Origin: Allorhizobium sp.
Lineage (GTDB): Bacteria; Pseudomonadota; Alphaproteobacteria; Rhizobiales; Rhizobiaceae
Assembly (NCBI GenBank): GCA_051861045.1
Contig: JBHYDI010000007.1
Location: forward strand, 87,722-151,721
Length of the DNA stretch: 64,000 nt
Direction: 5' to 3'
The notes beneath the pieces were generated by a model that saw only the letters and a program-made list of their open reading frames with translations, was not told where the DNA came from and did not search any database. The position numbers and the translations under genes are program-made. The first letter of the stretch is position 1. Each line of letters starts with the position of its first letter. Positions 41,868 to 64,000 of this stretch are shown piece after piece.

Positions 41868-41884
41868 GGCCCCCTCGCTTTCTA

Positions 41885-46397: not shown

Positions 46398-47366
46398 TCA
46401 TTCCAGGTCTTCGCGGCCTTTGCGGGTATCGGACGGCGCTTTTCCATATTGCGCGCGATAGCGGGCGGCAAAATACCCCATGTGTCGGAAGCCCCAGCGT
46501 GAGGCGATTTTCTCGATGCTTTCCTCCCCCGTTCCAGCAAGCAAATCATTATGGACGCGGCTGAGGCGCATCTGAAGAATGTAAGCGTTGGGGGTTGTCG
46601 ACAGATGATGCCTGAACGAATTCTGCAGTGTCCGAATGCTGGCGCCGGATCGGCGTGCCAACTCTTCGATGGCGAAATCCTGATCGGCATGTCGCTCGAG
46701 CCAGTCGATCGCGCGCTCAAGATGGCGGGGCAAGGTAGATCGCTCATCGGACCTGATCTCCTCCCTGGGCCAGAGACTGACGAACATCATGATTAGAGCA
46801 TCGCGGATCAGTGCGGGCGTGCCTGTGGTATCCGGACCCATCCCATTCGGGTCGAGTCCAGACAAAAGGTGTGCTGCTATCTGGTGGATGATGTCGATGC
46901 CTGCAGCGGTCGCAACATGAGCTTGCAGTGCAGCCAGGCCCCATCCGGCGCTTCCGTGGCTGCGGTTGATGTGCGGAGCCACCTGCTCGAACGGGATGAC
47001 CACGGAGAGTTTACGGGAACCTGGACATGCCGTCACCGTAACCTTTCGCGTGTCCTTTATCAGCACGGCACCACGGGCCGGAGCTTCGATCTCTTCATCT
47101 GCCGATTGAAAACAGAATCGGCCCTCTTCGATGAAATGGAGCTCAACTTGGTGGTGCTTCGGACATCCATAACGCACCCCGTATCCGGAGCTGGTCGAGA
47201 TCCGCCAAAGCGTAATGTTGCAGACCGAGGTGATGTTCGCCTGGATGTCAAACGGACCGGCTTCCTTGAGCCGCCAGAACTCCGACGGACGGAAAGTCTT
47301 CGCAGAGATTGACTGCGTCTCAAGTTCGTCTTGCGAACTTATACTGTACATCTTTAAGTCGGTCAC
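46398..47366 (-). CDS. AraC-family transcriptional regulator
   Basis: IEELARRSGASIRTLQNSF..IASRWGFRHMGYFAARYRAQYG..PS; more A/T-ending codons than core genes. Confidence 0.9.
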   Translation of the reverse strand: MTDLKMYSISSQDELETQSISAKTFRPSEFWRLKEAGPFDIQANITSVCNITLWRISTSSGYGVRYGCPKHHQVELHFIEEGRFCFQSADEEIEAPARGAVLIKDTRKVTVTACPGSRKLSVVIPFEQVAPHINRSHGSAGWGLAALQAHVATAAGIDIIHQIAAHLLSGLDPNGMGPDTTGTPALIRDALIMMFVSLWPREEIRSDERSTLPRHLERAIDWLERHADQDFAIEELARRSGASIRTLQNSFRHHLSTTPNAYILQMRLSRVHNDLLAGTGEESIEKIASRWGFRHMGYFAARYRAQYGKAPSDTRKGREDLE

Positions 47367-47550
47367 GGATCAATGCGGCAAGTTGGAATGTTTGCGCTAA
47401 ATATAGGTGTCATATATAAATAGTATAGCTTGCAACATGCCTCACGGCCAGTGCTCGCTTTGGCTTTTTTTGTACGTGCTTGACGGAAGATTGATTTGAG
47501 CCGCTGCGAATGCCCGGCACAGAACAGCGTTCGTGTTCGCTGTTTGGCAT

Positions 47551-47770
47551 GGACGTTCACCTCTTCCGCAAGCTGGAGGTCGAGCCGGCTCCCATGCTGC
47601 TCGCCTTCATCCTCGGGCCGGTGATGCAACAATTCCTGCGCCGGACGTTTTTCGTCTCCAAAAGCGCCCCAGCATCCTTTCCACCCGGCCGCTGAGTGCT
47701 GGCCTGCTCTTGATGGTTGTTCTGCCATCGGTCAGAAAGAAGCGCGAAGAAGCATTCCAGAATGGGTACC
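47551..47770 (+). pseudogene. frameshifted 3' remnant of tripartite tricarboxylate transporter TctA
   Basis: Two frames give FRKLEVEPAPMLLAFILGPVMQQFLRR and TRPLSAGLLLMVVLPSVRKKREEAFQ, matching the TctA C-terminus; rest of gene absent. Confidence 0.7.
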
Positions 47771-47862
47771 GGAGCAAGGAAGAAGCGGTAACCGCTGGGC
47801 AATCTTCCGCGAGACGTGCACACAGAGAGACCCGGGTGAATATCGAAACAGCGAGCTGAACT

Positions 47863-47920
47863 GCGGTTCGACTATTCGGGATCGGTTGCCGAACATCGGG
47901 GGTGGTCGAACCGCGCTTTT
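47863..47920 (+). terminator. hairpin plus T-run downstream of the tctA remnant
   Basis: gcggttcgac..gtcgaaccgc 10-bp stem with inner ttcgg/ccgaa, then gctttt. Confidence 0.4.
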
Positions 47921-48086
47921 GGATTTTGTGATGGTTGATGCACGTCCAGCAAAGCTAAGACGGGCCAGCAAATCCTTACCCAGAGCCCTTGCGGTCGGAC
48001 CCGACGGCGCAGTTGATCGCGCCCAAGGGTGGTCTAATCCGGGAGCCAGATTTCCGCTCCGCCGTCTCGCGTGGCGCAGTCGTGAA

Positions 48087-49565
48087 ATGAATGTCATCTC
48101 CTCAACTGGTCTGAACCGCATGGACAATTTCTCCGAACCGGCAAGCCAAAGGGTCGTCGGTTATGCCGCTGGCTTGGGTTCCCAGGTGAGGCGATGGGGA
48201 ACTGGGTTGAACAGAGATCCCCTTGCAGAGACGCTTGCCTCGCATTTTGGCCAGACGACGCGGTTGGCGGGTCCGATCCTCATGGGCCATCTCTCAAACT
48301 TCGCGATGACCACGACGACTTTGCTTCTCTTTGGCTGGATGGGCAGTGGTTCACTCGCAGCAGCGGGGCTTGCGATCCGTGTGGCTGTCAGCACGAATAT
48401 TCTGGCAGGTATTCTTCTTGTCGTCGGCGTTGTCGCCTCGAGTGCGAACGGGGGGCGGGACACCAAGCGAGTTTCCGGTGTTTATTGGAACGGCCTCTAC
48501 CTGGCATTTGCCCTGTCGGTGCTATCCTTTATCTGGATGACTGTTGCGCCCGGCCTGCTTGCCGTCCTTGGCCAACCTCCAGAAGTCGTGGCTGAAGCAG
48601 AACGAATTCTTCACATCTTGCGTTGGGGCGAACCAGCAAATCTGCTGCGTCTCGGGTTGATGCGCACCATGCTCCCAGCCCTTGGCATGACATGGATCCT
48701 CTATGCCCTTACGCCAGTCTCTTTGCTGTTTTATGCAATCGCAGGGTATGCGCTTGTTTCAGGCTTTCATGGCTTCGCACCGATGGGTGTTGTCGGAATT
48801 CCAGTCGCTCTGGTTGGAACGATATGGCTGACGGCGCTGGTCATGCTGGCTGCCGTCCACTTCGGGCCGAGCCGTTCCCTTATCCCCTTCACACGGATCC
48901 GATGGTCGCTCCTGTGGGAGCTTTTTCGGACTGGCCTGCCAATAGGAACCCTGCAGGGCGTTGACGGGATTTTCTTCCTGATTGCCACAGTCGTTGTCGG
49001 ACAGTTCGGGGCGGCTGCGCTCGCAGCGCACCAGATCGCATTGAACTTCGGCACCATCGCCTATTCGCTGGCGGTGTCGTTCGGTGACGCCGCAGCATTG
49101 CGCATCAGTTATCGGCGAGGGGCACTGGTTTTCAAGGATGCTCGGATCGCAGGCTTTGTTGGCGTCACCCTGGGCACGGTCTCGATGGCGGCTGCTGGAC
49201 TTGTTGTTCTCTCCTTTCCGAACCTCTTCATCGGTTTGTTCATCGACATCGCCGATCCCCGCAATGCTGCAACGCTGGCAGCGTCTCAGTCCCTGGTGCT
49301 CTTTGCCAGTCTCTTCATCTTCGCAGACGGGGTCTATGGGACCGGGATGGGCGTGCTTCGGGGACTGGGGGATAACCGCTACGCAATGGTGGTGGTGATC
49401 GTCGTCTACTGGGGTATCGGGCTCCCTCTGGGTGCGGCCTATCATCTGCTCGTTGGCTTCGGAATTGAGGAGGTCTGGTTGGGGCTTGCGACGTTGCAAG
49501 GCCTGATCGGGTTGGTCCTGATAAAGCGCTATGCCAAAGTCACGCGGCAGGATCCAAATGAGTGA
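48087..49565 (+). CDS. MATE-family efflux transporter
   Basis: About 12 TM; LAGPI, GLPIG, LAAHQIALN, ADG..GVLRGLGD; start uncertain (48087 or 48120). Confidence 0.88.
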   Translation: MNVISSTGLNRMDNFSEPASQRVVGYAAGLGSQVRRWGTGLNRDPLAETLASHFGQTTRLAGPILMGHLSNFAMTTTTLLLFGWMGSGSLAAAGLAIRVAVSTNILAGILLVVGVVASSANGGRDTKRVSGVYWNGLYLAFALSVLSFIWMTVAPGLLAVLGQPPEVVAEAERILHILRWGEPANLLRLGLMRTMLPALGMTWILYALTPVSLLFYAIAGYALVSGFHGFAPMGVVGIPVALVGTIWLTALVMLAAVHFGPSRSLIPFTRIRWSLLWELFRTGLPIGTLQGVDGIFFLIATVVVGQFGAAALAAHQIALNFGTIAYSLAVSFGDAAALRISYRRGALVFKDARIAGFVGVTLGTVSMAAAGLVVLSFPNLFIGLFIDIADPRNAATLAASQSLVLFASLFIFADGVYGTGMGVLRGLGDNRYAMVVVIVVYWGIGLPLGAAYHLLVGFGIEEVWLGLATLQGLIGLVLIKRYAKVTRQDPNE

Positions 49566-50688
49566 AGAGGAAATGGGTCCCGGAAAAACGGCACTGCATC
49601 ACGACCAGACGTGCTGCGTTCCAGAGCAGGTGCCGCCAGTTGATGCTGCGGATCTTGTCAGTCTGGCGGCTGCAGGAATGCCGATCCTGACCGGGCACGA
49701 GCCGGTTAATGTGGTTAAACGGTCTGTACCTCCCTTGTACGGGTCTCTGGATCGTCTCACTGGACTGCATCGTCGGGGTAGGCAGAAATGGACCACCGTG
49801 CCTGACAACATGCGCGGGTCGATCCTCTTCATCCTGTCGGTTGTGCTGTTCTGTATCATGATGGTTGCCATCAAGGAGATCGGCACGGGGCTGCCGTTGC
49901 CTCAGATATTGCTGATCCGCCAGGTGATCCTGACCGTGATACTTCTGCCGTTGCTGCCTGGTGGCATCTCGCGTGCACTCAAGACCCAATACCTGGGGAG
50001 ACACCTGCTGCGAGGGCTCGTCTGTCTCGGTTCGCAATACACCTATTTTCTGGCGCTTCTCTATCTGCCGCTCGCCGATATGACAGCACTCGGCTTCAGT
50101 CAGGTCATCTTCATGACCATTGCCGCCGTCGTTGTTCTCAAGGAAAACGTGGGTTGGCGGCGGTGGCTGGCAACAATGGTCGGCTTCGTTGGCGTCCTTA
50201 TCATGCTGAGACCGAGCAGCGGGACCATCGACGTCTATTCGCTGGTCGCTGTCTTGAGTGCGCTGCTTCTATGTGGTGTGACCATATCGATCCGGTTGAT
50301 GGCCAGGACCGAGGCGACTGAAACGGTGATGCTCTATCAATCCTTCGTGCTCTGCACGGCCTATGCGGTGCCGAGCATTGTGTGGTGGCAGTGGCCCAGC
50401 CAGAAGGAATGGATGCTCCTGGCAGTCATCGGCATCGTCGGAACGTTGGGACAGTATCTGTTCACGCTTGCATTTCGGGTGGCGGAGGCATCGGCGCTCG
50501 CACCTCTTGAATTCACCCGGCTTCTGATTGCCATAGTCCTTGGCTACTTGGTCTTTAGCGAGATACCGGAGCTATCGACCATGCTGGGTGCGCTGATTGT
50601 CATGGGCTCGACGATTTACACGGTGCGGAGAAATTCGCGGCATGAAGACAACCATGGACAGAAAGCGTTCCACGAATCAGGGCCGTAG
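49558..50688 (+). CDS. DMT/EamA-family transporter with long N-terminal extension
   Basis: Two EamA repeats (LKENVGWRRW..VGFVGVLIMLRP; AEASALAPLEF); overlaps the MATE stop by 8 bp. Confidence 0.88.
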   Translation: MSEEEMGPGKTALHHDQTCCVPEQVPPVDAADLVSLAAAGMPILTGHEPVNVVKRSVPPLYGSLDRLTGLHRRGRQKWTTVPDNMRGSILFILSVVLFCIMMVAIKEIGTGLPLPQILLIRQVILTVILLPLLPGGISRALKTQYLGRHLLRGLVCLGSQYTYFLALLYLPLADMTALGFSQVIFMTIAAVVVLKENVGWRRWLATMVGFVGVLIMLRPSSGTIDVYSLVAVLSALLLCGVTISIRLMARTEATETVMLYQSFVLCTAYAVPSIVWWQWPSQKEWMLLAVIGIVGTLGQYLFTLAFRVAEASALAPLEFTRLLIAIVLGYLVFSEIPELSTMLGALIVMGSTIYTVRRNSRHEDNHGQKAFHESGP

Positions 50689-50701
50689 GACGCCGGCCCT
50701 C

Positions 50702-51652
50702 TCAGCACGCGACCTTGGCCAGCTTGCTGGCCATCGGAATGCTTTCCATATGGGTGTCGATCAGACAATCGACGAAGCGGCGCGCGAGCTTGAATTCGCT
50801 GGAACTCGGTCCCGTCACTGCTGCGATGGCGTGCACCTTTCGGGTAAGATCCTGACGCAGCACCCGCAGCATGCCGGTTTCTACATGCGGCTGAGCCACG
50901 TGGTCAGGCAGATAGCCGATATTGCGGCCAGACAGGATCAGCGTCATATGAGCATGCGCGCCGTATCCAATGTCACCGCGGGTCGCAGCATTCCGGATCC
51001 GTTCGGGATGGAAGTGTTCGAGATGGCCGCGATTGGCATAGACAGCATTTTCGATCTGCTCCATCGTGATGTCTGAATCGCGGATGTGAAACAGCGGATG
51101 CGCCCGACCGCAATAGATCGCTGCCGCTTCCGGAAACAGCGGTTCGAAGGTCAGTTGGCTGAAGTGGTCGTCGGTCAGGCCGATCCCGACGTGAATGAGG
51201 CCGTCCGCCACATGGCCCGTCATCTGAAATCCCAGCATCACTTCCAGCTTGAAGCGCGCATTCGGATAATACTCAGCCAAACGACTGATGGCCTCTGCAA
51301 TGCGTGAACGCGGATTGTCCACGATATGGTCCTGGACGCCGATGATCAGTTCATGTCCGGCACTGTCATTGAGATTGGATGCACGCTGCTTGAAGCTCTC
51401 GACCGAGGCAAACAGGTCCTTGGCGGCCTGATAGACCACCTCGCCTTCATGATAGAGTTTGAATCCCTTCGGACCACGTTGGCAGAGCCGGACACCGAGA
51501 CGGATTTCCAGCGATTTCAGATACTCGCTCAGCATGGACTGCGAGAGGTTCAAGACCGACTGAGCAGCCGTAAAGCTGCCTTCCTCCACGATCGTGCAAA
51601 AGCAACGCAGCAGTTTGAGGTCTACATCGTATATCTGGGACAAATTCGACAT
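50702..51652 (-). CDS. LysR-family transcriptional regulator
   Basis: DLKLLRCF..EEGSFTAAQ..LSQS.LS..LE.RLG..LC.RG; divergent from the monooxygenase operon. Confidence 0.93.
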   Translation of the reverse strand: MSNLSQIYDVDLKLLRCFCTIVEEGSFTAAQSVLNLSQSMLSEYLKSLEIRLGVRLCQRGPKGFKLYHEGEVVYQAAKDLFASVESFKQRASNLNDSAGHELIIGVQDHIVDNPRSRIAEAISRLAEYYPNARFKLEVMLGFQMTGHVADGLIHVGIGLTDDHFSQLTFEPLFPEAAAIYCGRAHPLFHIRDSDITMEQIENAVYANRGHLEHFHPERIRNAATRGDIGYGAHAHMTLILSGRNIGYLPDHVAQPHVETGMLRVLRQDLTRKVHAIAAVTGPSSSEFKLARRFVDCLIDTHMESIPMASKLAKVAC

Positions 51653-51696
51653 TGCAAACCAGTTCTGACTGTTTGAGCCGCCCTAGTAAGGTCCTC

Positions 51697-51712
51697 AGCA
51701 AAGATTGTGCCA
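51697..51712 (-). promoter_or_regulatory. sigma54 (-24/-12) promoter of the LysR gene
   Basis: Minus strand TGGCACAATCTTTGCT, exact TGGCAC-N5-TTGC(A/T), about 45 bp upstream of ATG 51652. Confidence 0.7.
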
Positions 51713-51841
51713 ACACAAGAAACGCATTTGCGATCTTTGATAAAAGTCAACTTTTCAAAGGCTTGGAATCTGTGGCGCTCAAAGGGGGGCGCAAGTGAGC
51801 CATAGCGCAAATACGCCAACTGCTCATGTAAATGGCACTGC

Positions 51842-51860
51842 TTGACCGAAATGGTGCACC
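51842..51860. promoter_or_regulatory. candidate NtrC-type enhancer site
   Basis: TTGACCGAAATGGTGCA versus TGCACC-N4-TGGTGCA (two mismatches), 130-150 bp upstream of the sigma54 motif. Confidence 0.4.
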
Positions 51861-52135
51861 GCAACAGTTTCCGGTCATGGAATGGCAGCTTGCGTGGCTT
51901 ATTCGCCAAGGCTGAAAGTCGAAAATATTCCCGGAGGCTCCCTCAACAACCGCGCAAGATACTATGATTGCTGGGAAACGACCTGTTCGAAAAGCATCCA
52001 TCTTGACCAATCAAAGCATCGAGCTTTGCCGATGGTCACCCATGCTGCACTGCGATTAACGTTCCTTCAACCCCTGTAACTGCCAGCAATCCTCAGGCTG
52101 CGGCAGGTCTGACGGCCGCAAGGAAACAGAGCAAA

Positions 52136-53437
52136 ATGTCGAAGAGCTTTCACCTCGCCTGGTTCATGAATTTCTCGGTCGATGACTGGAATGCTCCGTT
52201 TTCGGCCGGTGGAAAGCCTTGGGATGGAAACTTCTATGTCGACATGGCAAAGGCGATGGAACGCGCCTGTTTCGACTACATCATGCTCGAAGACACGTTG
52301 ATGATCTCGGAAGCATATGGCCACAGCATGGAGGTCTACCTCAAGCATGCTCTGATGGGGCCGAAGAGCGATCCCATGCCGCTTGCGGCACTGATCGCCA
52401 GCAAGACAAGCAATCTCGGCGTTGTCGCCACCATGTCGACCATGGCCTATCCGCCCTTCATGCTCGCTCGTCTCTGTGCGACGGTCGACAGCATTTCCGG
52501 CGGGCGGTTCGGGTGGAATATCGTGACAAGCGGCGAAAATCTAGCCGCCCAGAATTTTGGAATGGACGAGCTACCGCCACGCCAGGACCGCTATGACATG
52601 GCCGACGAATATGTCGAACTCTGCAAGCAGCTCTGGGGCAGTTGGGACCAGGATGCCGTCGTGCTCGACCGTGAGACCGGCACCTATGCCGACTACCGCA
52701 AGGTCAGACCCATCAATTTCGTTGGCAAATACTACAAGTGCCGCGGGCCGCTGAACTGCGTGCCGGGGCCCCAAGGACGCCCGACCTTCGTGCAGGCAGG
52801 GGGATCGACGCGCGGTCGCCAGTTCGCGGCGATGACCGCCGACAGCATTATTGCAGCCGCATCCGGGATCGAAGCGATGAAGGAATATCGCGATGATATT
52901 CGCGCCCGTGCGGCAGCCGGCGGGCGTGATCCGGACGAAGTGAAGGTCTTCTTCATCGTCACCCCCGTGTTGGCGGAGACGGAAGCTGCCGCCAAGGCCA
53001 AGCTCGAGGACTATATCAGCTCACCCGAATACCAGGTGAAGACGCTGGCCTCTATCAGCTCGGTCACCGATATCGACTTCTCGCAATTCGAGCTCGACGA
53101 AGAACTGCCTCGGCTGACCACCAATGGCGAACAGGGCTCGCTAGACGCCTTCGCGCAGTGGGGACGCGGCAAGACGCTGCGACAGCTGATCAGCGACCGG
53201 GCGACGCGTGGTCTCGACGGTGTCGTGGGCACGCCTGATCAGGTTGCCAAACGGCTGGGCGAGGTGATGGAAGCCGTTGGCGGTGATGGCTTCCTGATCA
53301 GTTCGCCCTTCCAGAAAGTCAGCCGTCAGTACGTCACCGAGATTTGCGAAGGCCTCGTGCCGGCCCTGCAGCGCCGTGGCCTGACACGCACGGCCTACAC
53401 GAAGCCGACGCTGCGCGAGACCCTTCGCGAGTTCTAG
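52136..53437 (+). CDS. NtaA/DmoA/SnaA-family FMN-dependent monooxygenase 1
   Basis: AKAMERACFDYIMLED, ARLCATVDSISGGRFGWNIVTS, GPLN, QAGGS..G.QFAA..AD, LVPALQRRGL, TLRE. Confidence 0.93.
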   Translation: MSKSFHLAWFMNFSVDDWNAPFSAGGKPWDGNFYVDMAKAMERACFDYIMLEDTLMISEAYGHSMEVYLKHALMGPKSDPMPLAALIASKTSNLGVVATMSTMAYPPFMLARLCATVDSISGGRFGWNIVTSGENLAAQNFGMDELPPRQDRYDMADEYVELCKQLWGSWDQDAVVLDRETGTYADYRKVRPINFVGKYYKCRGPLNCVPGPQGRPTFVQAGGSTRGRQFAAMTADSIIAAASGIEAMKEYRDDIRARAAAGGRDPDEVKVFFIVTPVLAETEAAAKAKLEDYISSPEYQVKTLASISSVTDIDFSQFELDEELPRLTTNGEQGSLDAFAQWGRGKTLRQLISDRATRGLDGVVGTPDQVAKRLGEVMEAVGGDGFLISSPFQKVSRQYVTEICEGLVPALQRRGLTRTAYTKPTLRETLREF

Positions 53438-53491
53438 GAACCCGCGCCGGGGATGAACGATCGATCTGCATCAGACAAGAGGACACCCGAC

Positions 53492-54796: not shown

Positions 54797-54846
54797 TCAC
54801 CTTTGGATGCCACGACCAGGAGCCAACATCCGAAAAGAGGTCCCCG

Positions 54847-55407
54847 ATGACAGATGCAATCGATGAGATCATCTCCCAGACGACAGGGCCCGAGGGCGGC
54901 CTGACATCGCGCCCTCCCGTCGAAGCTCAGGACTATCGGAACGCCATGGCCAAGCTCGCGGCGGCGGTGAACATCATCACCAGCACAGGCGAGAATGGAT
55001 GGTGCGGCTTTACCGCATCCGCAGTGTCGAGCGTCACGGACAGCCCGCCGACGCTGCTTGTTTGCATCAAGCGCACAGTCCAGGCCCATGGGACGATTGC
55101 CGCGTCGGGCGTCCTTTGCGTCAATACGGTCGCCGGACCGCAGGAGGAGCTTGCGATGACCTTTGCCGGATCGGGCGGCAACAAGGATATGGCACAGCGT
55201 TTCGCGGGCGGAGATTGGAGCCAGCTTGTCACCGGGGCGCCTGTGTTGACCGGTGCCATCGTCAACTTTGACTGCCGCGTGACGGGTGTCAGTACAATTG
55301 GCACACATGACGTCTTTTTCTGCGAGGTCCTTGCCGTGGCCGGCCAAGATGCCATGGAAAGCGGGGCCCTCGTATATTTCGATCGGAAATTTCACGCCGT
55401 CGCCTGA
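54847..55407 (+). CDS. flavin reductase (HpaC/RutF-like)
   Basis: RNAMAKLAAAVNIIT..GFTASAVSSVTDSPPTLLVCI, GTHDVF, LVYFDRKF. Confidence 0.92.
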   Translation: MTDAIDEIISQTTGPEGGLTSRPPVEAQDYRNAMAKLAAAVNIITSTGENGWCGFTASAVSSVTDSPPTLLVCIKRTVQAHGTIAASGVLCVNTVAGPQEELAMTFAGSGGNKDMAQRFAGGDWSQLVTGAPVLTGAIVNFDCRVTGVSTIGTHDVFFCEVLAVAGQDAMESGALVYFDRKFHAVA

Positions 55408-56169: not shown

Positions 56170-56188
56170 CATCGCTGGCACCTCCACC

Positions 56189-57256
56189 ATGAGGATTCGA
56201 CTGTCCGTCCTCGATCAATCGCTCGTGTCTGCCGGGCATGTGCCAGCGCAAGCAATTCGGGGCAGCGTCTCGCTTGCCCGGGCCTGCGAAGGCTTCGGCT
56301 ATAGTCGCTTTTGGGTCTCGGAGCATCATGGCAATGCGGCCATGGCGGGTTCGGCGCCAGAAGTCCTGCTTGGTGCACTCGCCATGGCGACGCGCACAAT
56401 GAGGATTGGCAGTGCTGGAGTTATGTTGCCGCATTACGCTCCATTGAAGGTTGCCGAACAGTTCCGTGTGCTCGAAGCACTGGCACCTGGGCGCATCGAT
56501 CTCGGGCTTGGTCGCGGTCCCGGTGCCGATCGCCAGACGGCCTATGCCTTGAGACCCGATGCCCTGGACAATCCCCTCTCCATGTCTGCGATGGACAGCT
56601 TTCCGACCAATGTCGAGGACACACTTGCCTTGGTTCGCGGCGAGCCACTCGGTGACGACCATGTCTTCGCCGGAGTTTTTGCGCAACCCCAGGGGCCAAC
56701 GGCACCACAGCCCTGGATCGTCGGGTCGGGCAAATACTCGGCACGTCTGGCGGGTCATCTCGGGTTGCCCTTCTGTCACGCGCATTTCTTTGGCAGCGAC
56801 AGCGAAGCTGCCCAGGCGATCGGTGCCTATCGCGCAGGCTTTCGCGCCTCGCCGATCCTGACAGAACCCCTGGTCGGCCTGTGCCTCATTGCGATGGCGG
56901 CCCCAACCAGCGCCGAAGCCGAGCGCCTTTTCCTCTCCTACGCCCCCTGGCGTGTCTCAAGAGATGCCGGACGTATGGTGCCATTGCAGCCGCCTGACCA
57001 GGCGATCGCAGCGGCTGTCGGCCTCGACCAGGATACGATCCAGCATCTGCGCAAAACGGCGGTGTTCGGGACTCCCGACGAGGTCTACGCCAGGATTGCC
57101 GGGCTCAAGACCGATTACGCAATAGACGAGATGGTGATCCTCGCGCCGGCATATGAGCTCTCTGATCGCATGGCCTCCTATGGCCTGATTGCGGGGATCA
57201 ATCAAACACAGGCAACGGAGGACCGGCCGGGTCGGGCGTCCGAGTTCTGGCTATGA
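56189..57256 (+). CDS. luciferase-like (LLM) monooxygenase, group 1 / CmoO-YhbW type
   Basis: LSVLDQ, RFWVSEHH, AGSAPEVLL, RIGSAGVMLPHYAPLKVAEQF, GRIDLGLGR. Confidence 0.92.
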   Translation: MRIRLSVLDQSLVSAGHVPAQAIRGSVSLARACEGFGYSRFWVSEHHGNAAMAGSAPEVLLGALAMATRTMRIGSAGVMLPHYAPLKVAEQFRVLEALAPGRIDLGLGRGPGADRQTAYALRPDALDNPLSMSAMDSFPTNVEDTLALVRGEPLGDDHVFAGVFAQPQGPTAPQPWIVGSGKYSARLAGHLGLPFCHAHFFGSDSEAAQAIGAYRAGFRASPILTEPLVGLCLIAMAAPTSAEAERLFLSYAPWRVSRDAGRMVPLQPPDQAIAAAVGLDQDTIQHLRKTAVFGTPDEVYARIAGLKTDYAIDEMVILAPAYELSDRMASYGLIAGINQTQATEDRPGRASEFWL

Positions 57257-57284
57257 CGGTCCACAAACCATCGGAGACTTCGTG

Positions 57285-57824
57285 ATGAAAGAGATCGACG
57301 CCATTCCACCGACAACGTCCGAGTTGCTCACCATTGATCAAGGCACGTTCTGGCGCACCCTTGGCAACCGCGCCACCGGTATGACAATCGTCACGGCCAT
57401 GAGTGACGAGGGACCTGTCGGATTTCTCGGCCTGTCCGCGACGCATGTGGCGGCCGACCCCGCCACCATGTTGGTCTCTATCGATCGCAAAACCAGCGCG
57501 CTCGCAGGCGTCCTGTCTCAGGGGCACTTTGCAGTCAACTTTCTCGATGCAGCCGCTGCCCATGTCGCGACAGCGTTCGGAGGTAAGTCCGGACTGCGGA
57601 ATGCCGATCGCTTCGTCCACGGTGAATGGGCGACACTTGCAACCGGTGCTCCGGTGTATTGTCAGGCTCTTGGCGTTTTCGATTGTCTCGTGGAGACCGT
57701 CGTTGAGCACGGCAATGTGTCCATCGTCATAGGAAGGGTGGTTGCTGCCTCCTCCCGCGCCGATGGCGAACCCCTGCTTTTCTTCCGCGGCAAGACGATC
57801 GAGGGCCTTCACCAGTCAGAGTAA
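57285..57824 (+). CDS. flavin reductase family protein
   Basis: FWRTLGNRATGMTIVT, DPATMLVSID, HFAVNFL, PLLFFRG. Confidence 0.88.
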   Translation: MKEIDAIPPTTSELLTIDQGTFWRTLGNRATGMTIVTAMSDEGPVGFLGLSATHVAADPATMLVSIDRKTSALAGVLSQGHFAVNFLDAAAAHVATAFGGKSGLRNADRFVHGEWATLATGAPVYCQALGVFDCLVETVVEHGNVSIVIGRVVAASSRADGEPLLFFRGKTIEGLHQSE

Positions 57825-58224
57825 CTGGCTGGAGGGATGAAGTGCAGATTTGCTGCAATCATAGTCATGCCCACAGGCGGACTGCCATGAGTGGCGTCCG
57901 TCGCAGAACGTGCTGCGGCATCTGGAAAGCACTGTCGATTTATTTGCGCTCTACTTGCAGGCGTCCCGAGAGGGGCCATGCAATCCTGCATGCGGTGAAT
58001 ATGCAGCTTCTGGTGATGACGGTCTACCGGCGCGCTATTCGTTGATTAAAAAGGCAGCATCGCGATGCAATAAGATGCGCCAAAAGCTTCGGTTCAGCCG
58101 GAGTTCATTTTCAGTTTTCGCCATGTTTATCAGCGGGAAACGTCGCTACGGTCCTCATACTGCGATGCAGCAAAGCAAGATCCTCAAGTGAGGTAGGTAG
58201 CGGCTGCGAAGGAGAGCGGATTTC

Positions 58225-59538
58225 ATGCCAACGAATATGTTTCATCTTGGATGGTTTTTGCAGGGCTCAAGCATCGGCGGCTGGGGCGATAAATGGTCTG
58301 GGAATATTGCCAGAGAATGGATGCATCCCAGCGCCTATTTGGACCTCGCGCGTGCGATGGAGCGCGCATGCTTCGACTATATCCTCATTGAAGACTCGAT
58401 CTATGTTGGCCAGAATTGGCAGGATTCCCGCGAAATATTTCTAACCAACGGCATCAGTGTTCCGCGCCAGGAACCCTCCGTCGTTGCGACACTGATGGCG
58501 GCTGCGACCACACGGCTTGGCATCGTTCCCACTTTGTCCACCTTTGCCTATCACCCCTATCTCACCTCGCGGATCGTCGGCACGCTCGACCAGATCTCGT
58601 TGGGGCGTGGCGGCTGGAATGTGGTGACCGGGAGCTCGGACCTTTCTGCTCAGAATTTCGGGATGGAGAAGCTCGCAGACCATGATGAACGCTATGTCAT
58701 GGCCGAAGAATACATGCAGATATGCCAGGGGCTCTGGGGGTCCTGGGAGCCGGGCGCGATCGTCGGTGATCGTGAGACCGGGGTGCTCATCGACCACAAC
58801 AAGGTCCACACGATCGATTACAAGGGCAAGTACTACGCCTCACGCGGTCCGCTGAATTCCGGCCCGCTTCCGCAGGGGCAGCCTGTTATTGCTCAGGCCG
58901 GCGGTTCGAAGAGCGGCAAGGGATTTGCTGCCCGGTATGCCGACACCATTGTCGCGGCCCCCAAGGGCGTCGAAGCAATGAAACAGTATCGCAATGACGT
59001 CCGCACCGAGATGGCGGCCATCGGGCGGGATCCAGACAAGTGCAAGGTTCTCTTCCTCGTCCAGCCAATTGTGACAGAGACGATGACGGAAGCAGGCGAG
59101 CGCATTGCCGAGCGCAAGGCCGCATCCGAGAAATACATCGACCAACGTCTGGCGCGCTTCGGCTGGAGCACCAATCTCGACCTTTCTGGCTGCGATCTCG
59201 ACGCCCCTATCGGCGAACTTACCACCAACGGTCATCAGTCCAGCCTGGCCCAGTTCCTTGCGCGCTCATCCGGCAAGACACTGCGTGAGGCGATTATCGA
59301 GCATACCACCAGCGGCTATTGCGTCGACATGGTCGGCACGCCCGACAGCATTGCGAGCCAGATGGCAGAGGTCATGCAGGAGGTCGGCGGCGATGGTTTT
59401 CTCATCGAACAACCGAATGTCAACCGCCGCACGATCGCCTCGATCACCGACGGCCTCGTTCCCGTTTTGCAGCATCGCGGACTGACACGCAACGCCTACG
59501 CGCATGAGCAGCTACGCGACAATCTTCTGGACTTTTAG
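58225..59538 (+). CDS. NtaA/DmoA/SnaA-family FMN-dependent monooxygenase 3
   Basis: ARAMERACFDYILIED, LDQISLGRGGWNVVTG, GPLN, QAGGS..G..FAARYAD, LVPVLQHRGL, LRDNL. Confidence 0.93.
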   Translation: MPTNMFHLGWFLQGSSIGGWGDKWSGNIAREWMHPSAYLDLARAMERACFDYILIEDSIYVGQNWQDSREIFLTNGISVPRQEPSVVATLMAAATTRLGIVPTLSTFAYHPYLTSRIVGTLDQISLGRGGWNVVTGSSDLSAQNFGMEKLADHDERYVMAEEYMQICQGLWGSWEPGAIVGDRETGVLIDHNKVHTIDYKGKYYASRGPLNSGPLPQGQPVIAQAGGSKSGKGFAARYADTIVAAPKGVEAMKQYRNDVRTEMAAIGRDPDKCKVLFLVQPIVTETMTEAGERIAERKAASEKYIDQRLARFGWSTNLDLSGCDLDAPIGELTTNGHQSSLAQFLARSSGKTLREAIIEHTTSGYCVDMVGTPDSIASQMAEVMQEVGGDGFLIEQPNVNRRTIASITDGLVPVLQHRGLTRNAYAHEQLRDNLLDF

Positions 59539-59601
59539 CATCCGCAGACACGGCCCGATCCGCCAACGCCTTCCCAATTTTCAATTCCAGGGAGTCCTCT
59601 G

Positions 59602-60432
59602 ATGTCTATGCATTCGAAAACCGTATTGACTGTCGCCTCGATGCTCCTGGGTGCATTGACACTCACGGCCCGCCCGGCTCTGGCAGAAAAACTCCTGCTG
59701 GGCAACGAAGGGGTTTATCCGCCCTTCAGCGTCGTCGCGTCTGACGGAACCCTGACAGGCTTCGAACCGGCGCTCGCACGTGAGATGTGCAAGCGAATGA
59801 ACGTCGAGTGCGAATTTGTTGTCATGGATTTCAAGGCGCTGATCCCGTCGATCCTGCAAGGCAAGTTCAACATCCTGGCAAGCCAGCTGTCACCGACCCC
59901 CGAGCGTCTTGAAAAGCTGACATATGCGATGCCGATTGTTTACAATCCTGCGACTTTTGTCGTGCGCAAGGACAGCAATCTCACCTTCACGGCTGAGGGG
60001 CTTGCCGGCAAATCGCTCAAGCTTGGCCTTCAACGGGGCGCATCCTCTATCCCTTACGTCGAAAAGAACTTCGCAGGCCTGTTCACGCCTGTCCTCTACG
60101 ACAATCCCGACCAGATGCGTCTCGATCTGCTGGCCGGCCGCGTCGACCTGATCTTCGATTCCAAGATCAACTGGACGCTCGAACTGATCAACAAGCCTGA
60201 TGGCAAGGACTATATGCTCGCGGGCGGCGATCACTGGCTCGGTGATCCTGCGATTCCCCCGAACGAGCGCGGCTACAGCTGGGCTGTGCGCAAGGGTGAC
60301 GAGGCGATTGTCGAGCGCATGAACGTCGCCCTGAAATCGATCATCGAAGACTGCACCTACACCAAGATCCGCAAGGAATATCTCGACATCACGATACTCG
60401 CTGCCGAGGAGGCCTGTGCCGCCTCCGAATAG
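59602..60432 (+). CDS. polar amino acid ABC transporter substrate-binding protein 1 (HisJ/ArgT family)
   Basis: Signal peptide; GNEGVYPPFS, EMCKRMNVEC, DFKALIPSI..GKF, DLLAGRVD. Confidence 0.92.
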   Translation: MSMHSKTVLTVASMLLGALTLTARPALAEKLLLGNEGVYPPFSVVASDGTLTGFEPALAREMCKRMNVECEFVVMDFKALIPSILQGKFNILASQLSPTPERLEKLTYAMPIVYNPATFVVRKDSNLTFTAEGLAGKSLKLGLQRGASSIPYVEKNFAGLFTPVLYDNPDQMRLDLLAGRVDLIFDSKINWTLELINKPDGKDYMLAGGDHWLGDPAIPPNERGYSWAVRKGDEAIVERMNVALKSIIEDCTYTKIRKEYLDITILAAEEACAASE

Positions 60433-60569
60433 GGCGTTGCAACAGCTGCGCACCTCACCTGTCCACCTGTCTCCAACCAATGGGAATGAAGTCCATGGGC
60501 ATGCTCTCAACACCAGGCATCAGCAGGTATTCTTTCTCGAACCAGGCCGGCGATCGACGACAGGCCAAG

Positions 60570-61388
60570 GTGCGCAACCTGAAGGTTGTCGTGGCGGGCA
60601 TAGTGGCCGTTCTTCTTGGCCATCTGCCGGCCGCGGCTGAAACACTAAAACTCGGGAATGAGGGCGTTTATCCGCCTTTCAGCATGGTCGATGCCAATGG
60701 CACTCTGACCGGCATCGAGGCCGACCTCGCCCGGGAGATGTGCAAGCGGATGGAGGTCGAATGCGAAATCATCGTGATGGATTTCAAAGCGCTGATCCCA
60801 TCGCTGCTTCAGGGCAAGTTCGACATCCTCGTCTCCCAGGTAACACCGACAGCTGAGCGCAAGGAAAAGATGCTGTTCAGCACCCGCATCGTCGCCAATC
60901 CGATGGTGTATGTCCTTCCTGCCAATGGGAATTATACGCTTACCAAAGAAGGACTTGCCGGCAAGGGCCTGAAGATGGGGCTGCAACGTGGTGGCGCGCA
61001 TATAAAGGTCGCGGAGGATATGTTCGGCGATGCCGTGGAATATGTCCTCTATGACAATCCCGACCAAATCCATCTCGATATGGTGGCAGGGCGCATCAAC
61101 ATGTCCTTCGAGGCCAAGCTGAACGTCGTCGTTGATTTCCTCAGCAAGCCGGAAGGCAAGGCGTTTGAGATTGTCGGCGAAGAATACTGGATTGGTGAGC
61201 CCTCCGTCCCTGAGAACGAGCGCGGCTTGTCATGGGTTACCCGAAAGGGAGAAGAGGCCCTGGTGGCCCGTATGGACACGGCGATTAAGGCAATCATGGC
61301 GGATTGCACCTACACCGCCATCCGCAAGAAATACATGGATATCGCCATTCTACCCGAGGACGAGGCCTGCGAAGGCAAGACAAACTGA
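60570..61388 (+). CDS. polar amino acid ABC transporter substrate-binding protein 2
   Basis: Paralog of SBP1. GTG 60570 gives a clean signal peptide; the ORF track starts at 60480. Confidence 0.9.
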   Translation: MRNLKVVVAGIVAVLLGHLPAAAETLKLGNEGVYPPFSMVDANGTLTGIEADLAREMCKRMEVECEIIVMDFKALIPSLLQGKFDILVSQVTPTAERKEKMLFSTRIVANPMVYVLPANGNYTLTKEGLAGKGLKMGLQRGGAHIKVAEDMFGDAVEYVLYDNPDQIHLDMVAGRINMSFEAKLNVVVDFLSKPEGKAFEIVGEEYWIGEPSVPENERGLSWVTRKGEEALVARMDTAIKAIMADCTYTAIRKKYMDIAILPEDEACEGKTN

Positions 61389-61430
61389 ACACGCCCTCTT
61401 TGTTGCTCTCACGGATGAAAGGGTTCCGGC

Positions 61431-62129
61431 ATGGAAATATCATCAGCGGAGTTTTGGGGATATGTACGTCAGATCGGCGGTGGCGCGGTCGTCACAATGC
61501 AGCTCTTTGTGTCCGGCTTTGTCTTGGCGCTCCTCCTTGGAACGTTGATCGGGATTGTTACGCTCTCACGAAACATCGTGATCCAGACGATCTGGCGCGT
61601 TTATTCCTCCATCATCATGGGCGTCCCGTCACTGCTGGTCATCTTCCTGCTCTATTATGGAGGAAGCGCCATCCTGACTGGTCTTTTCGGGATGTCGCGT
61701 TCGATCGATGTCACGCCTTTCGGCGCCGGCTTGACGGCGCTGACCATCGTTTACGCGGCCTATGTCGCCGAACTGCTTCATGGCGCAGTACGCAATCTGC
61801 CAAGGGGACAATTCGAGGCATGCGCAGCGCTTAATCTCAGTACCTTTCACGCCTGGCGACACGTGATTCTGCCGCAGGTCGCTCGTCTCGCATTTCCGGG
61901 CCTCGTGAACATCTGGCTGATCGTTCTCAAGGACACCCCGTTGGTGTCTCTTGCGGGCCTGAACGATCTCGTTGCCAATGCGAAAATCGCCGCCGGCGCC
62001 ACCAACGAGCCTTTTGTTTTCTTCATCGCAGCGTCGCTGTTCTTCATCGTTTTCAGCGCCCTGACCATGCCACTCGCCGCCCGTATAGAAGTTCGCTTCA
62101 ACCGCGGCCTAGCCAGGGTGAACACATGA
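61431..62129 (+). CDS. polar amino acid ABC permease (HisQ/OccQ-like)
   Basis: GVPSLLVIFLLYYG, AYVAELLHGA..LPRGQFEA, LKDTPLVSL. Confidence 0.93.
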   Translation: MEISSAEFWGYVRQIGGGAVVTMQLFVSGFVLALLLGTLIGIVTLSRNIVIQTIWRVYSSIIMGVPSLLVIFLLYYGGSAILTGLFGMSRSIDVTPFGAGLTALTIVYAAYVAELLHGAVRNLPRGQFEACAALNLSTFHAWRHVILPQVARLAFPGLVNIWLIVLKDTPLVSLAGLNDLVANAKIAAGATNEPFVFFIAASLFFIVFSALTMPLAARIEVRFNRGLARVNT

Positions 62130-62941
62130 ACGCGCTCGTGATCGACATTGAACTTGTCTGGGAGTCGTTGCCAGCCATGCTCAACGGGCTGATGACGACG
62201 GTGCTGGTGACCGTCATTGTTCTGGTTCTCGGCATGATTTTCTGCGTTCCGCTGACGTTGGCGAGAATGTCGTCAAACCGGGCATTTGCCTTGCCGGCGG
62301 CCTTCTTCGTGATGTTCTTCCGCGGCGCGCCACTGCTGATCCTGCTCTATCTTGTCTATTATGGCTTTGGCCAGATCGAGGCACTGCGGGACGGGCCGCT
62401 TTGGTTCATCTTCGGCAGCGCATTCGCCTGTGCTGTGATCGGGCTGACGCTCAATCACCTTGCCTTCATGGTCGACGTCGTGAGGGGGAGTCTTGAGGCG
62501 GTTCCCGCTGGTCTCAGTGAAGCCTCGAATTCGCTCGGGATCTCGCCGCGCGACACCTTCCGATACATCCAGCTGCCGCTGGCAATGCGTTACGGAATCA
62601 AGGCTTACCAGAACGAAGTCGTCATGCTGACCAAAGGCACGGCAGTCATCAGCGTGATCACCATCATCGACCTGACAGCGGTCGCCAATGAGGTTTTCGA
62701 GAGAACCTACGATCCATTCACGCCAATGCTGACTGTCGCTGCCTTCTACTGGATACTGGTCAACACGATGCGGCTTGGCTTTCGCCGATTTGAAGCCCAC
62801 CTCAACCGTCATCATGCGGCCGAAGATGCCCGCCGCAATCAGACCTCAGCCAGAACTGCCGGATCGACCATGTTGCGCCCACTCGAATGGCTGAAGTCGA
62901 GGCGCGCGATCCTCGCTGCCCACAAGGAGCATGCCATATGA
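62126..62941 (+). CDS. polar amino acid ABC permease (HisM/OccM-like)
   Basis: FFRGAPLLILLYLVYYG, NEVVMLTKGTAVIS; ATGA overlap. Confidence 0.93.
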   Translation: MNALVIDIELVWESLPAMLNGLMTTVLVTVIVLVLGMIFCVPLTLARMSSNRAFALPAAFFVMFFRGAPLLILLYLVYYGFGQIEALRDGPLWFIFGSAFACAVIGLTLNHLAFMVDVVRGSLEAVPAGLSEASNSLGISPRDTFRYIQLPLAMRYGIKAYQNEVVMLTKGTAVISVITIIDLTAVANEVFERTYDPFTPMLTVAAFYWILVNTMRLGFRRFEAHLNRHHAAEDARRNQTSARTAGSTMLRPLEWLKSRRAILAAHKEHAI

Positions 62942-63714
62942 CAGCGGTAGAGCCATCCTCGACAGGTCCTACCCTGTCCTCGTCCATCGCGGTCAGCATG
63001 AAGGGTGTCGAGAAACGGTATGGAACGTTTCGTGCCCTGAATGGGATCGATCTCGATGTGCGACGTGGCGAGAAGATCGTCGTATGCGGTCCTTCCGGTT
63101 CAGGTAAATCAACGCTCATCCGTTGCATTAACCGTCTGGAGCCGCATGATGCAGGAACGATCGTCGTCAATGGCATAGAGCTCGACGGTTCACGAGCGAC
63201 CACACAGGATGTCCGCATCGAAGTGGGAATGGTGTTTCAGCAGTTCAATCTGTTTCCGCATCTGACAATCCTCGAGAATTGTACACTTGCCCCGCGCTTG
63301 GCCCGAGGTGCAACAATTGAGGCCGCCGAGCGGATTGCGAGACGCTTTCTGGATCGTGTGCAAATCGGGGATCAGGCCAATAAGTATCCGAGCCAGCTCT
63401 CGGGGGGGCAACAGCAACGCGTAGCGATTGCAAGGGCTTTGTGTATGGAGCCGCGGATTATGCTTTTTGACGAGCCGACTTCATCACTGGACCCCGAGAT
63501 GATCAAGGAGGTCCTGCAGGTGATGGAGGACCTGACCAATGATGGACTGACCATGATCTGCGTGACCCATGAGATGGGTTTCGCCCGTCGGGTCGCCGAT
63601 CGATGCATCTTCATGGACAAAGGGGAAATCGTAGAATCGGGGTCGGCCGAAAGTTTTTTCGAGGCTCCACGGAGCGACAGGTTGAAGACCTTTCTGTCGC
63701 AGGTCCTGCATTGA
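62938..63714 (+). CDS. polar amino acid ABC ATP-binding protein
   Basis: GPSGSGKST, VFQQFNLFPH, LSGGQQQRVAIARAL, FDEPTSSLDPE, VTHE. Confidence 0.96.
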   Translation: MTAVEPSSTGPTLSSSIAVSMKGVEKRYGTFRALNGIDLDVRRGEKIVVCGPSGSGKSTLIRCINRLEPHDAGTIVVNGIELDGSRATTQDVRIEVGMVFQQFNLFPHLTILENCTLAPRLARGATIEAAERIARRFLDRVQIGDQANKYPSQLSGGQQQRVAIARALCMEPRIMLFDEPTSSLDPEMIKEVLQVMEDLTNDGLTMICVTHEMGFARRVADRCIFMDKGEIVESGSAESFFEAPRSDRLKTFLSQVLH

Positions 63715-63869
63715 CAGATAGCCATTGATTGCTGCGTTTGACTGCAGTCTCTGTCACGGCGACTTGAGACATCTGAACCGCACCGGGCGCCGCGAGATCA
63801 GTTTGACATCAAGACGTTTACGCCACAGGACTGGGGCTGCCGAAAGACAGTTTAGACATGGGTGGCAGA

Positions 63870-64000
63870 ATGAGCGGTAATCAATATTTTTCGCAGGTTG
63901 GCGGGCTTCCGCCGCAGACACAGACACTCTCCAGCAAGGCCGTCTTTACGACAGCCTATGCCGTGATCCCGAAGACGGTGATGAGCGATATCGTCACCAG
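63870..64000 (+). CDS. allE: (S)-ureidoglycine aminohydrolase (cupin), N-terminal fragment running off the window
   Basis: MSGNQYFSQVGGLPPQTQTLSSKAVFTTAYAVIPKTVMSDIVT resembles the proteobacterial YlbA/AllE N-terminus (GG.P.Q....A.FTEAYA.IP...M.DIVTS); only 43 codons visible. Confidence 0.65.
   Translation, partial: MSGNQYFSQVGGLPPQTQTLSSKAVFTTAYAVIPKTVMSDIVT

Follow-up and report, generated by a model that had tools for sequence, protein, structure and literature searches.

Systems that couple the uptake of a compound to its oxygenation by flavin mononucleotide (FMN)-dependent enzymes are of a familiar kind, and several described ones resemble the gene block treated here, which lies in a 64,000-nucleotide stretch of Allorhizobium sp. 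DNA (contig JBHYDI010000007.1, positions 87,722 to 151,721; this whole stretch is called the window below). The block, at 50702-63714 of the window, combines monooxygenases of the NtaA/DmoA family, flavin reductases and an ATP-binding cassette (ABC) importer of amino-acid type, and it is a conserved, co-inherited and uncharacterised uptake-and-oxygenation system of soil and water Rhizobiales. A preliminary description of the locus, made from the letters alone, knew of no characterised pathway with this gene set; none was found in the structure library, the source annotations or the literature, and no publication describing the gene set, or its family names in the context of such a block, was found.

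Among the described systems, those for nitrilotriacetate (NTA) and ethylenediaminetetraacetate (EDTA) depend on NtaA and EmoA, which cleave C-N bonds by hydroxylation next to the nitrogen, so that a carbonyl compound is released. EDTA is taken up by a transporter of the peptide/opine (SBP_bac_5) type, and its degradation involves an iminodiacetate oxidase of the DAO family. The importers of sulfonate and thioether systems are generally of the NitT/TauT type. The yxe system of Bacillus subtilis performs a C-S salvage comparable to that of ytmI, the operon of CmoO and CmoJ. The ytmI operon itself serves S-alkylcysteine salvage and is controlled by the activator YtlI (PMC9239247, PMC10863075). 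The ytmI locus, as fetched for comparison, contains a divergent LysR gene and genes for an acetyltransferase, two binding proteins (TcyJ/K), two permeases, an ATPase, YtmO/CmoO, a glutaredoxin-like protein, YtnJ/CmoJ, the flavokinase RibR, an M20 deacetylase and a TauE-type protein.

Gene content and comparison with described systems

All six frames of the region from 46.3 to 64 kb were translated, and the products were scanned against NCBIfam and Pfam. The gene identities established in this way are listed below; FMNH2 denotes reduced FMN.

50702-51652, minus strand: LysR-type regulator, divergent from the Nta1 gene (HTH_1 and LysR_substrate)
51653-52135, no strand: LysR/Nta1 intergenic control region, 483 nt (sequence)
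52136-53437, plus strand: Nta1, FMNH2-dependent monooxygenase of the NtaA/DmoA family, type A (TIGR03860, 404.8 bits)
53453-54796, plus strand: Nta2, type-A paralog (TIGR03860, 407.2 bits)
54847-55407, plus strand: Fre1, NAD(P)H:flavin reductase, RutF/HpaC-like (PF01613 Flavin_Reduct)
55459-56169, plus strand: RibB, 3,4-dihydroxy-2-butanone-4-phosphate synthase, stand-alone (TIGR00506, 220.9 bits)
56192-57256, plus strand: small luciferase-like monooxygenase (LLM), MsnO8/YhbW group (TIGR03558, 333.8 bits)
57285-57824, plus strand: Fre2, second flavin reductase, HsaB-like (PF01613 Flavin_Reduct)
57825-58224, no strand: gap, 400 nt (sequence)
58225-59538, plus strand: Nta3, monooxygenase of the NtaA/DmoA family, type B (TIGR03860, 383.2 bits)
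59602-60432, plus strand: SBP1, SBP_bac_3 periplasmic binding protein, LAO/HisJ/ArtJ/NocT branch (TIGR01096, 147.5 bits, below the cut-off)
60480-61388, plus strand: SBP2, second SBP_bac_3 binding protein (56% identity to SBP1)
61431-62129, plus strand: ABC permease 1, ArtQ/HisQ-like (profile scan; 36% identity to NocQ)
62126-62941, plus strand: ABC permease 2, ArtM/HisM-like (profile scan; 33% identity to NocM)
62938-63714, plus strand: ABC ATPase (GlnQ model, 320.9 bits)

All genes from Nta1 to the start of an AllE-like gene beyond the ATPase lie on the plus strand, and the inventory of the preliminary description (four monooxygenases, two reductases, RibB, an importer with two binding proteins and an AllE-like start, all co-oriented) was found complete. 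Permease 2 starts within the end of permease 1, with a 4-nt overlap, and at 62938 the ATPase start runs into the permease 2 stop (ATGA); this ATPase start agrees with a 258-aa gene call in Rhizobium sp. AAP116. A 434-aa gene call in the same genome supports 53492 as the probable true start of Nta2. The 400-nt gap at 57825-58224 is the probable division of the block into two transcription units. Named LysR equivalog models matched the LysR protein weakly.

The closest known architecture is that of ytmI, which shares with the block a divergent LysR gene, two SBP_bac_3 proteins, two permeases, an ATPase, an LLM of about 334-340 aa (38% identity), an NtaA-family monooxygenase (34-35%) and a flavin-supply gene. 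The differences are that the block, like the 83 related loci described below, has no N-acetyltransferase, M20 deacetylase, glutaredoxin-like or TauE-type gene; that its binding proteins belong to another branch, SBP1 and SBP2 giving no tblastn match to TcyJ/TcyK at E<=1e-3; that it encodes three NtaA-family enzymes of two clades instead of one; and that flavin is supplied through RibB rather than the flavokinase RibR, with two Flavin_Reduct reductases in addition.

The NTA and EDTA systems (NtaA/NtaB, EmoA/EmoB) likewise combine an importer of their own and a flavin reductase with a two-component FMNH2 enzyme from this family. The importer of the block, however, is of the polar-amino-acid type, no oxidase is conserved with it, and EmoA is the solved NtaA/DmoA-family member most distant from the block enzymes. 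The noc and occ regions of Agrobacterium (NocPTQM, OccQMPJ) also place a polar-amino-acid ABC importer beside LysR and catabolic genes, and NocT resembles the binding proteins of the block in its arginine-moiety residues, in the replacement of LAO Asp161 and, for SBP2, in two signature residues. The identities are nevertheless low (about 26% to NocT, 36% to NocQ and 33% to NocM), and the LysR protein showed no similarity at E<=1e-5 to the genes of the fetched pTiC58 noc region. Where noc and occ have a NoxAB/OoxAB-type oxidase, arginase and ornithine cyclodeaminase, the block has FMN monooxygenases; no FAD-dependent opine oxidase or opine dehydrogenase was found in the block or in its conserved core. 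The ssu, msu, sfn, dsz and dmo systems pair a flavin reductase with an LLM-superfamily monooxygenase, often with an ABC importer, but the importer of the block is of amino-acid type, and the SsuD and SfnG models scored far under their cut-offs on the block proteins.

Conservation across genomes

Conservation was assessed in 80 fetched genome loci with an Nta3-type ortholog (66-100% identity), together with loci from an exact-protein look-up. Every block protein was mapped onto them, type-A and LysR genes were sought within 10 kb, neighbouring genes were called with a GC3 filter on account of the high-GC DNA and its long antisense open reading frames (ORFs), and counts were taken over 83 non-redundant loci. 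An Nta1/2-type (type-A) gene lies 10 kb or less from the type-B gene in 35 of the 83 loci, a LysR ortholog (at least 55% identity) is found within 10 kb in 29, and orthologs of a binding protein, both permeases and the ATPase are present in 29. A type-A gene accompanies the importer in all 29 of these loci, and the LysR gene in 27 of them. LysR and type-A genes stand in divergent orientation in every case, with 26 pairs of this kind mapped in the fetched loci, and wherever the importer is present it directly follows the type-B gene. A flavin reductase is co-conserved in 20 of the 83 loci. The co-conservation established by this synteny check bears out the preliminary description in treating the genes as one unit.

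In Ancylobacter, Starkeya and other Xanthobacteraceae the half with type A, reductase and LysR is inverted, so that the two halves are convergent yet remain together, and these separate halves fit with the 400-nt gap of the window as a second promoter. Rhizobium, Methylobrevis and Oharaeibacter have the whole block, with RibB, the LLM, MATE/EamA and both binding proteins included, and the core set persists in at least six genera. With the block recurring in other genera and the core present in 27-29 of the 83 loci, the gene arrangement is not due to chance. A linked LLM and an EamA gene of Marinivivus were considered as block genes and rejected, since they are not orthologs of the window genes.

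The accessory genes are rarer, being present among the 83 loci in seven (RibB), six (small LLM) and five cases (MATE, EamA and the second binding protein). Together with the 400-nt gap that divides the block, this rarity of RibB, LLM, MATE and EamA (5-7 of 83) could be taken to mean that a monooxygenase/RibB module merely stands beside an unrelated importer; in one variant the module would convert riboflavin to lumichrome for export by MATE/EamA, and the riboflavin lyase RcaE does belong to the same family (205-210 bits). We consider such a chance juxtaposition very improbable: type A accompanies the importer in 29 of 29 loci, the importer directly follows type B even where the other half is inverted, RcaE is no closer a match than other family members, and riboflavin breakdown has no use for an amino-acid importer.

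The genes that flank the block in the window are the following.

46398-47366, minus strand: AraC-family regulator (NCBIfam/Pfam scan)
about 48084-49565, plus strand: MATE transporter (family match)
49531-50688, plus strand: EamA transporter (family match)
from 63858, plus strand: (S)-ureidoglycine aminohydrolase-like (AllE-like) gene, first 47 codons, preceded by a 145-nt gap

The left boundary given in the preliminary description, 46398, is the end of the AraC-family gene; the divergent LysR gene lies 4.3 kb further in, and the MATE and EamA exporter genes between the AraC and LysR genes were missing from its list. MATE/EamA genes adjoin the block in Rhizobium sp. AAP116, in a Rhizobium metagenome-assembled genome (MAG) and in Methylobrevis (EamA), and in Oharaeibacter both have been relocated to the far end of the block, still adjacent to it. 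The RibN proteins, by which rhizobia import riboflavin, are members of the EamA/DMT superfamily, and by analogy the block-linked EamA protein (49531-50688) might serve flavin supply, as would RibB. The AllE-like gene, which had been counted as part of the system, was found beside the block in no more than the three closest relatives, and in Oharaeibacter MATE/EamA take its place after the block. It is thus a neighbour outside the conserved unit.

Relatives of the single enzymes occur in other surroundings. In Acetobacteraceae MAGs, many of them from lichen or peat, Nta3-type orthologs (67-69% identity) adjoin Dpp/Opp-type importers (SBP_bac_5, two permeases, fused ATPases) and in some cases branched-chain-type importers instead; through these contexts with peptide or branched-chain importers the type-B enzyme is repeatedly tied to amino-acid or peptide uptake. 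One Acetobacteraceae locus has an Nta3-type ortholog near a DAO-family oxidase, a GST-like gene and an FMN-dependent dehydrogenase. In another (L065, 8688-14554) a type-B/type-A pair lies back to back with a different SBP_bac_3 importer, and the neighbours resemble the tricarballylate dehydrogenase TcuAB by eye. The nearest plasmid-borne relative, a type-A-like NtaA/DmoA gene, is found on a plasmid of Salipiger sp. CCB-MM3 (L089, 9267-15644), between a NitT/TauT-type ABC importer and a creatininase gene with two SDR genes. Four Ancylobacter/Xanthobacteraceae loci (L057, L059, L061 and L062, 2200-11300) represent a second cluster in genomes that have the core block at another place. Its genes encode three NtaA-family enzymes, a LuxR-type regulator, a permease with an SBP_bac_3 protein, and an ATPase 44% identical to that of the block.

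Enzymes, binding-protein pockets and the proposed reaction

All three Nta proteins match TIGR03860 (NtaA/DmoA family) over their full length and above its curated cut-off of 279.7 bits. Nta1 and Nta2 share 81% identity, and either is 46-47% identical to Nta3. The type-B clade comprises at least 120 orthologs of about 437 aa with 68-98% identity, and the search gave 4745 family hits at E<=1e-50; the source annotations of the close type-B orthologs all carry generic names. The enzymes were placed by bit scores against solved structures.

DszA: Nta1 266 bits, Nta3 217 bits
DmoA: Nta1 259 bits, Nta3 213 bits
YtnJ/CmoJ: Nta1 240 bits, Nta3 217 bits
LadA: Nta1 223 bits, Nta3 215 bits
HcbA1: Nta1 205 bits, Nta3 205 bits
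RcaE: Nta1 205 bits, Nta3 210 bits
7e36 chain B, NTA-monooxygenase-family oxidoreductase: Nta1 199 bits, Nta3 192 bits
3sdo, Burkholderia protein named NTA monooxygenase: Nta1 185 bits, Nta3 205 bits
EmoA (5dqp): Nta1 162 bits, Nta3 143 bits

The scores against solved relatives are uniformly low, and by this measure no characterised enzyme or known pathway forms a tight group with any of the three, in agreement with the preliminary description. Nta3 scores almost evenly (205-217 bits) against DszA, DmoA, CmoJ, LadA, HcbA1 and RcaE, and type A appears by score to lean slightly toward the C-S enzymes. By closest similarity the Nta enzymes are not orthologs of EmoA, the comparison having covered EmoA and not authentic NtaA; nor are they orthologs of CmoJ, whose 217-240 bits are equal to or below those of DszA, DmoA or LadA. 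In direct comparison the three enzymes are 34-35% identical to B. subtilis CmoJ, less than the 46% that they share with each other; among their characterised relatives, identity was computed for CmoJ alone.

The remaining enzymes could be assigned to families. The small LLM scores 333.8 bits on TIGR03558 against a cut-off of 167, gives 165 bits with PDB entry 4us5 and is 38% identical over 335 aa to B. subtilis YtmO/CmoO. Two PF01613 Flavin_Reduct genes inside the block encode predicted reductases, as befits a two-component system; Fre1 scores 195 bits on the RutF model (cut-off 254.75), Fre2 scores 105.6 bits on the HsaB model, also below the cut-off, and the two share 30% identity. RibB scores 220.9 bits on TIGR00506 (cut-off 177.45) and has no GTP cyclohydrolase II domain. 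Overall, the assignments to families all lie above or close to the curated cut-offs.

The best solved relatives of SBP1 and SBP2 are HisJ, LAO and an arginine-binding protein, followed by NocT and OccJ. Pockets were aligned among pTiC58 NocT, HisJ, LAO, SBP1, SBP2 and 30 orthologs, and residues were counted in the 32 block-type sequences. The columns were chosen by the residue roles reported for NocT, which define a guanidinium site (Glu36 and Gln165), a pair that sandwiches the side chain (Tyr39 and position 77) and an alpha-carboxylate site (Arg102); in LAO, Asp161 locks the free alpha-amine, and NocT has Ser207 there (PMC4192606). The alignment established that Glu36 (LAO Asp11), Gln165 and Arg102, and a Phe at Trp77, are kept in 32 of 32 binding proteins, Tyr39 in 31 of 32, and that an Arg stands beside Gln165 in 31 of 32. 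The position of LAO Asp161 is Ser in 21 and Ala in 9 of the 32. At the positions of the nopaline signature (G97, M117, H170, S207), SBP1 has S, A, S and S and SBP2 has T, M, H and A, so that SBP2 has two of the four residues, Met117 and His170, at an overall identity to NocT of about 26%. Judged from these residues, the pocket fits a ligand based on a basic amino acid, possibly N-substituted with an extra acidic group. TcyJ/K have Gly and Thr where SBP1 and SBP2 have the basic-side-chain Glu and Gln, and the binding proteins of the window are therefore not of the cystine type.

From the gene set and the pockets it is highly probable that the importer and the two-component FMN monooxygenases act together on an imported modified amino acid. 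We infer the substrate class, the type of bond, the order of steps and the LysR-mediated induction by substrate as follows. The ABC importer, with one or two dedicated binding proteins, would take up an arginine-, ornithine- or lysine-like compound. The two flavin reductases would produce FMNH2 from NAD(P)H and pass it to type A (Nta1, Nta2) and type B (Nta3), and in some genomes also to the small LLM, while RibB would boost the flavin supply for this FMN-hungry set of enzymes. The monooxygenases would hydroxylate a carbon adjoining a heteroatom, and the unstable product would decay to an ordinary amino acid and a carbonyl compound. As the hydroxylated product would fall apart spontaneously, no further dedicated enzymes would be needed. 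Since the Rhizobiales core loci inspected share no conserved hydrolase, transferase or dehydrogenase gene, the products must be common metabolites. The LysR protein would respond to the substrate and mediate induction.

The bond that is cut may be the C-N bond of an N-substituted (opine-like or aminopolycarboxylate-like) basic amino acid, broken in the manner of NtaA and EmoA, an assignment made tentatively and with somewhat less than even confidence. Several points weigh against it. The top solved matches of type A are the C-S enzymes DszA, DmoA and CmoJ; the one solved C-N enzyme, EmoA, scores lowest of the NtaA/DmoA family, with 162 bits for Nta1 and 143 bits for Nta3. The closest operon architecture is that of the sulfur-salvage operon ytmI. 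At about 26% identity to NocT, the likeness of the pockets is at signature level only; Ser/Thr is retained at LAO Ser72, which in LAO helps to hold the free alpha-amine, and an Asp/Glu found one position before the Asp161 site in 30 of 32 orthologs might substitute for Asp161. TcyJ/TcyK, which serve cystine uptake, are likewise without an Asp161 equivalent; loss of this residue is therefore not specific to N-substituted ligands, and the argument drawn from it was downgraded. Moreover, the proposed scheme gives MATE/EamA no role.

A possible, though doubtful, alternative is that the block salvages an organosulfur amino acid. A thioether, sulfoxide or sulfonium amino acid (an S-alkylated cysteine or homocysteine derivative, thialysine or S-methylmethionine, for example) would be imported, its sulfur oxidised by the LLM or type A, and its C-S bond cut by an NtaA-family enzyme to give cysteine or sulfite. 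Most characterised family members do act on C-S bonds, with DszA, DmoA and CmoJ as the best solved matches, ytmI shares the architecture from LysR to a flavin-supply gene, there RibR (PMC9239247, PMC10863075), and the LLM of the window is 38% identical to YtmO/CmoO over its full length. However, the 34-35% identity to CmoJ is not above that of enzymes with other substrates; the acetyltransferase, M20 deacetylase, glutaredoxin-like and TauE-type genes of ytmI are absent here and in the 83 loci; and the binding proteins carry the basic-side-chain Glu and Gln and gave no match to TcyJ/TcyK by tblastn. The annotated neighbourhoods contain no sulfur-assimilation genes, unrelated sulfotransferase genes in one genome excepted.

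The sulfur content of the proteins bears on the same question. Sulfur-starvation proteins typically economise on sulfur. The block proteins are not sulfur-poor, with a mean Cys+Met content of 4.8% against 3.4% (standard deviation 1.2) for the other 38 proteins of the window; they are richer in sulfur than the window average, the opposite of sulfur-starvation sets, and this counts among their differences from the ytmI operon and from the sulfonate and thioether systems. Between C-N cleavage of an opine-like compound and C-S salvage, the former is slightly favoured. Of what had been proposed before, import of an opine-like or basic amino acid is supported by the retained residues for the basic side chain and alpha-carboxylate of LAO, HisJ and NocT and weakened where it leaned on the loss of Asp161, in view of TcyJ/K; C-N cleavage has on its side the basic-amino-acid pocket and proteins that are not sulfur-poor, and against it the better scores of the C-S enzymes and the architecture of ytmI.

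A third kind of chemistry, unlikely in our judgement, would be hydroxylation or N-oxygenation of a basic amino acid or guanidino compound with neither C-N nor C-S cleavage, or action on a peptide-like substrate. The family includes C-H and other oxygenases (LadA, HcbA1, RcaE) that score nearly as well, the Acetobacteraceae type-B orthologs (67-69%) lie near Dpp/Opp importers and DAO-family oxidase, GST-like and aldehyde dehydrogenase genes, and the Salipiger type-A-like gene adjoins a creatininase gene. But the importer is always accompanied by two monooxygenase clades, and the Rhizobiales core has no conserved genes for downstream catabolism, a finding that agrees better with cleavage to common metabolites than with hydroxylation alone.

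Regulation, origin and biological meaning

The LysR/Nta1 control region contains TGGTGCACCGCA at 51852-51863, with the palindrome GGTGCACC. At about 60 nt from the start of the LysR gene, 20 or more loci have a related word, TTGTGCGCCGCA, which is present in most loci of the Ancylobacter group. The exact 12-mer TGGTGCACCGCA occurs once in the window, and matches with up to two mismatches are no commoner than chance. In the 400-nt gap, probably a second promoter region by its sequence (57825-58224), there is a palindrome GCATCGCGATGC at 58057-58068, and a hairpin scan gave a weak hairpin at 58085-58105. In the Ancylobacter group the Nta3-type genes are preceded, at a distance of 100-160 nt, by an inverted repeat TAGGC-N2-GCCTA with AAGCTTCG and TTGGCGATACT after it; the window palindrome GCATCGCGATGC differs from this repeat, yet the same word AAGCTTCG follows it (58057-58091). 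From sequence inspection, TGGTGCACCGCA/TTGTGCGCCGCA and the repeats upstream of type B are put forward as candidate operators, and the elements upstream of type B may be operator and promoter.

No conserved sigma-54 promoter site was found in 27 orthologous LysR/monooxygenase intergenic regions, and upstream of the operons or ribB no riboswitch, the FMN riboswitch included, or other known RNA of Rfam appeared at gathering scores or E<=1. A generic scan for sigma-70 promoters and terminators gave sites no more numerous than in shuffles. The regulator is local and of substrate type, and this, like the lack of a riboswitch and a sigma-54 site, was counted in favour of the C-N version. The gain of nitrogen, earlier suggested as the purpose of the pathway, found no support, there being no sigma-54 or NtrC-type signal.

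RNA runs were examined as assembled contigs, which carry no information on the conditions of expression. In a soil metatranscriptome, short low-depth contigs of 95-99% identity cover the block from the LysR gene through the permeases, which suggests that the block is transcribed in soil, DNA carry-over being possible; zero depth over MATE/EamA is uninformative as these genes diverge past the identity threshold. A run labelled 'RNA?' was rejected as expression evidence since its 46-kb contigs are probably DNA.

The window is identical to part of a 4.47-Mb contig of an Allorhizobium MAG and is therefore chromosomal. Near-identical block proteins are encoded by cultured Agrobacterium sp. RAC06 and MA01 and by Rhizobium sp. 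R86522 and AAP116; further cultured carriers of the block are Oharaeibacter diazotrophicus, Methylobrevis albus and members of Ancylobacter or Starkeya. A search of a plasmid collection gave no copy of the block and just distant homologs of single genes. GC content is lower at 46000-64000 of the window (0.55-0.62) than at 1-46000 (about 0.60-0.64), as is third-position GC (0.62-0.75 against 0.73-0.85), and this segment of lower GC may have been acquired horizontally.

Directly upstream of the region lies a chemotaxis cluster on the minus strand (35530-46167), with CheB (35530-36618), an MCP-type gene (38147-39979), a second MCP-type gene that was not profile-scanned (40179-42002), CheA (42394-44394) and an HD-domain response regulator (45079-46167), along with small CheY-like ORFs. 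At 33715-35469 on the minus strand, an ORF of 584 aa shows good coding signal and has no Pfam match at E<=1e-5. Two tRNA genes were found at 26023-26094 (minus strand) and 32339-32411 (plus strand), the second beside a dip of GC to 0.573 at 32-34 kb. Further upstream are a catalase-peroxidase-type gene (14283-16667) with a divergent ORF (16716-17630) whose beginning is LysR-like by eye, and an AcrB-family RND pump (19954-23034) followed by two membrane-fusion-like ORFs, not scanned, to 25213.

As to biological meaning, it is conceivable, if rather unlikely, that the block is a route for natural N-carboxyalkyl (opine-type or aminopolycarboxylate) derivatives of basic amino acids, in which NtaA-family enzymes replace the FAD opine oxidases and which is chromosomally widespread in free-living Rhizobiales rather than carried on Ti-type plasmids. 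Its substrates could be octopine- or lysopine-like opines, opine-type metallophores or siderophore fragments. If an opine-like or chelator-like conjugate is indeed the substrate, soil and rhizosphere bacteria would possess a second, enzymatically unrelated way of harvesting such compounds, and the NtaA/EmoA-type C-N monooxygenases, known mainly from man-made chelators, would have a natural role. If organosulfur salvage is the true function, the cysteine-salvage logic of Bacillus would extend to Alphaproteobacteria, minus the acetylation steps. Cultured carriers of the block exist, and in both cases a function would be assigned to two large, uncharacterised clades of an enzyme family that is widely annotated.

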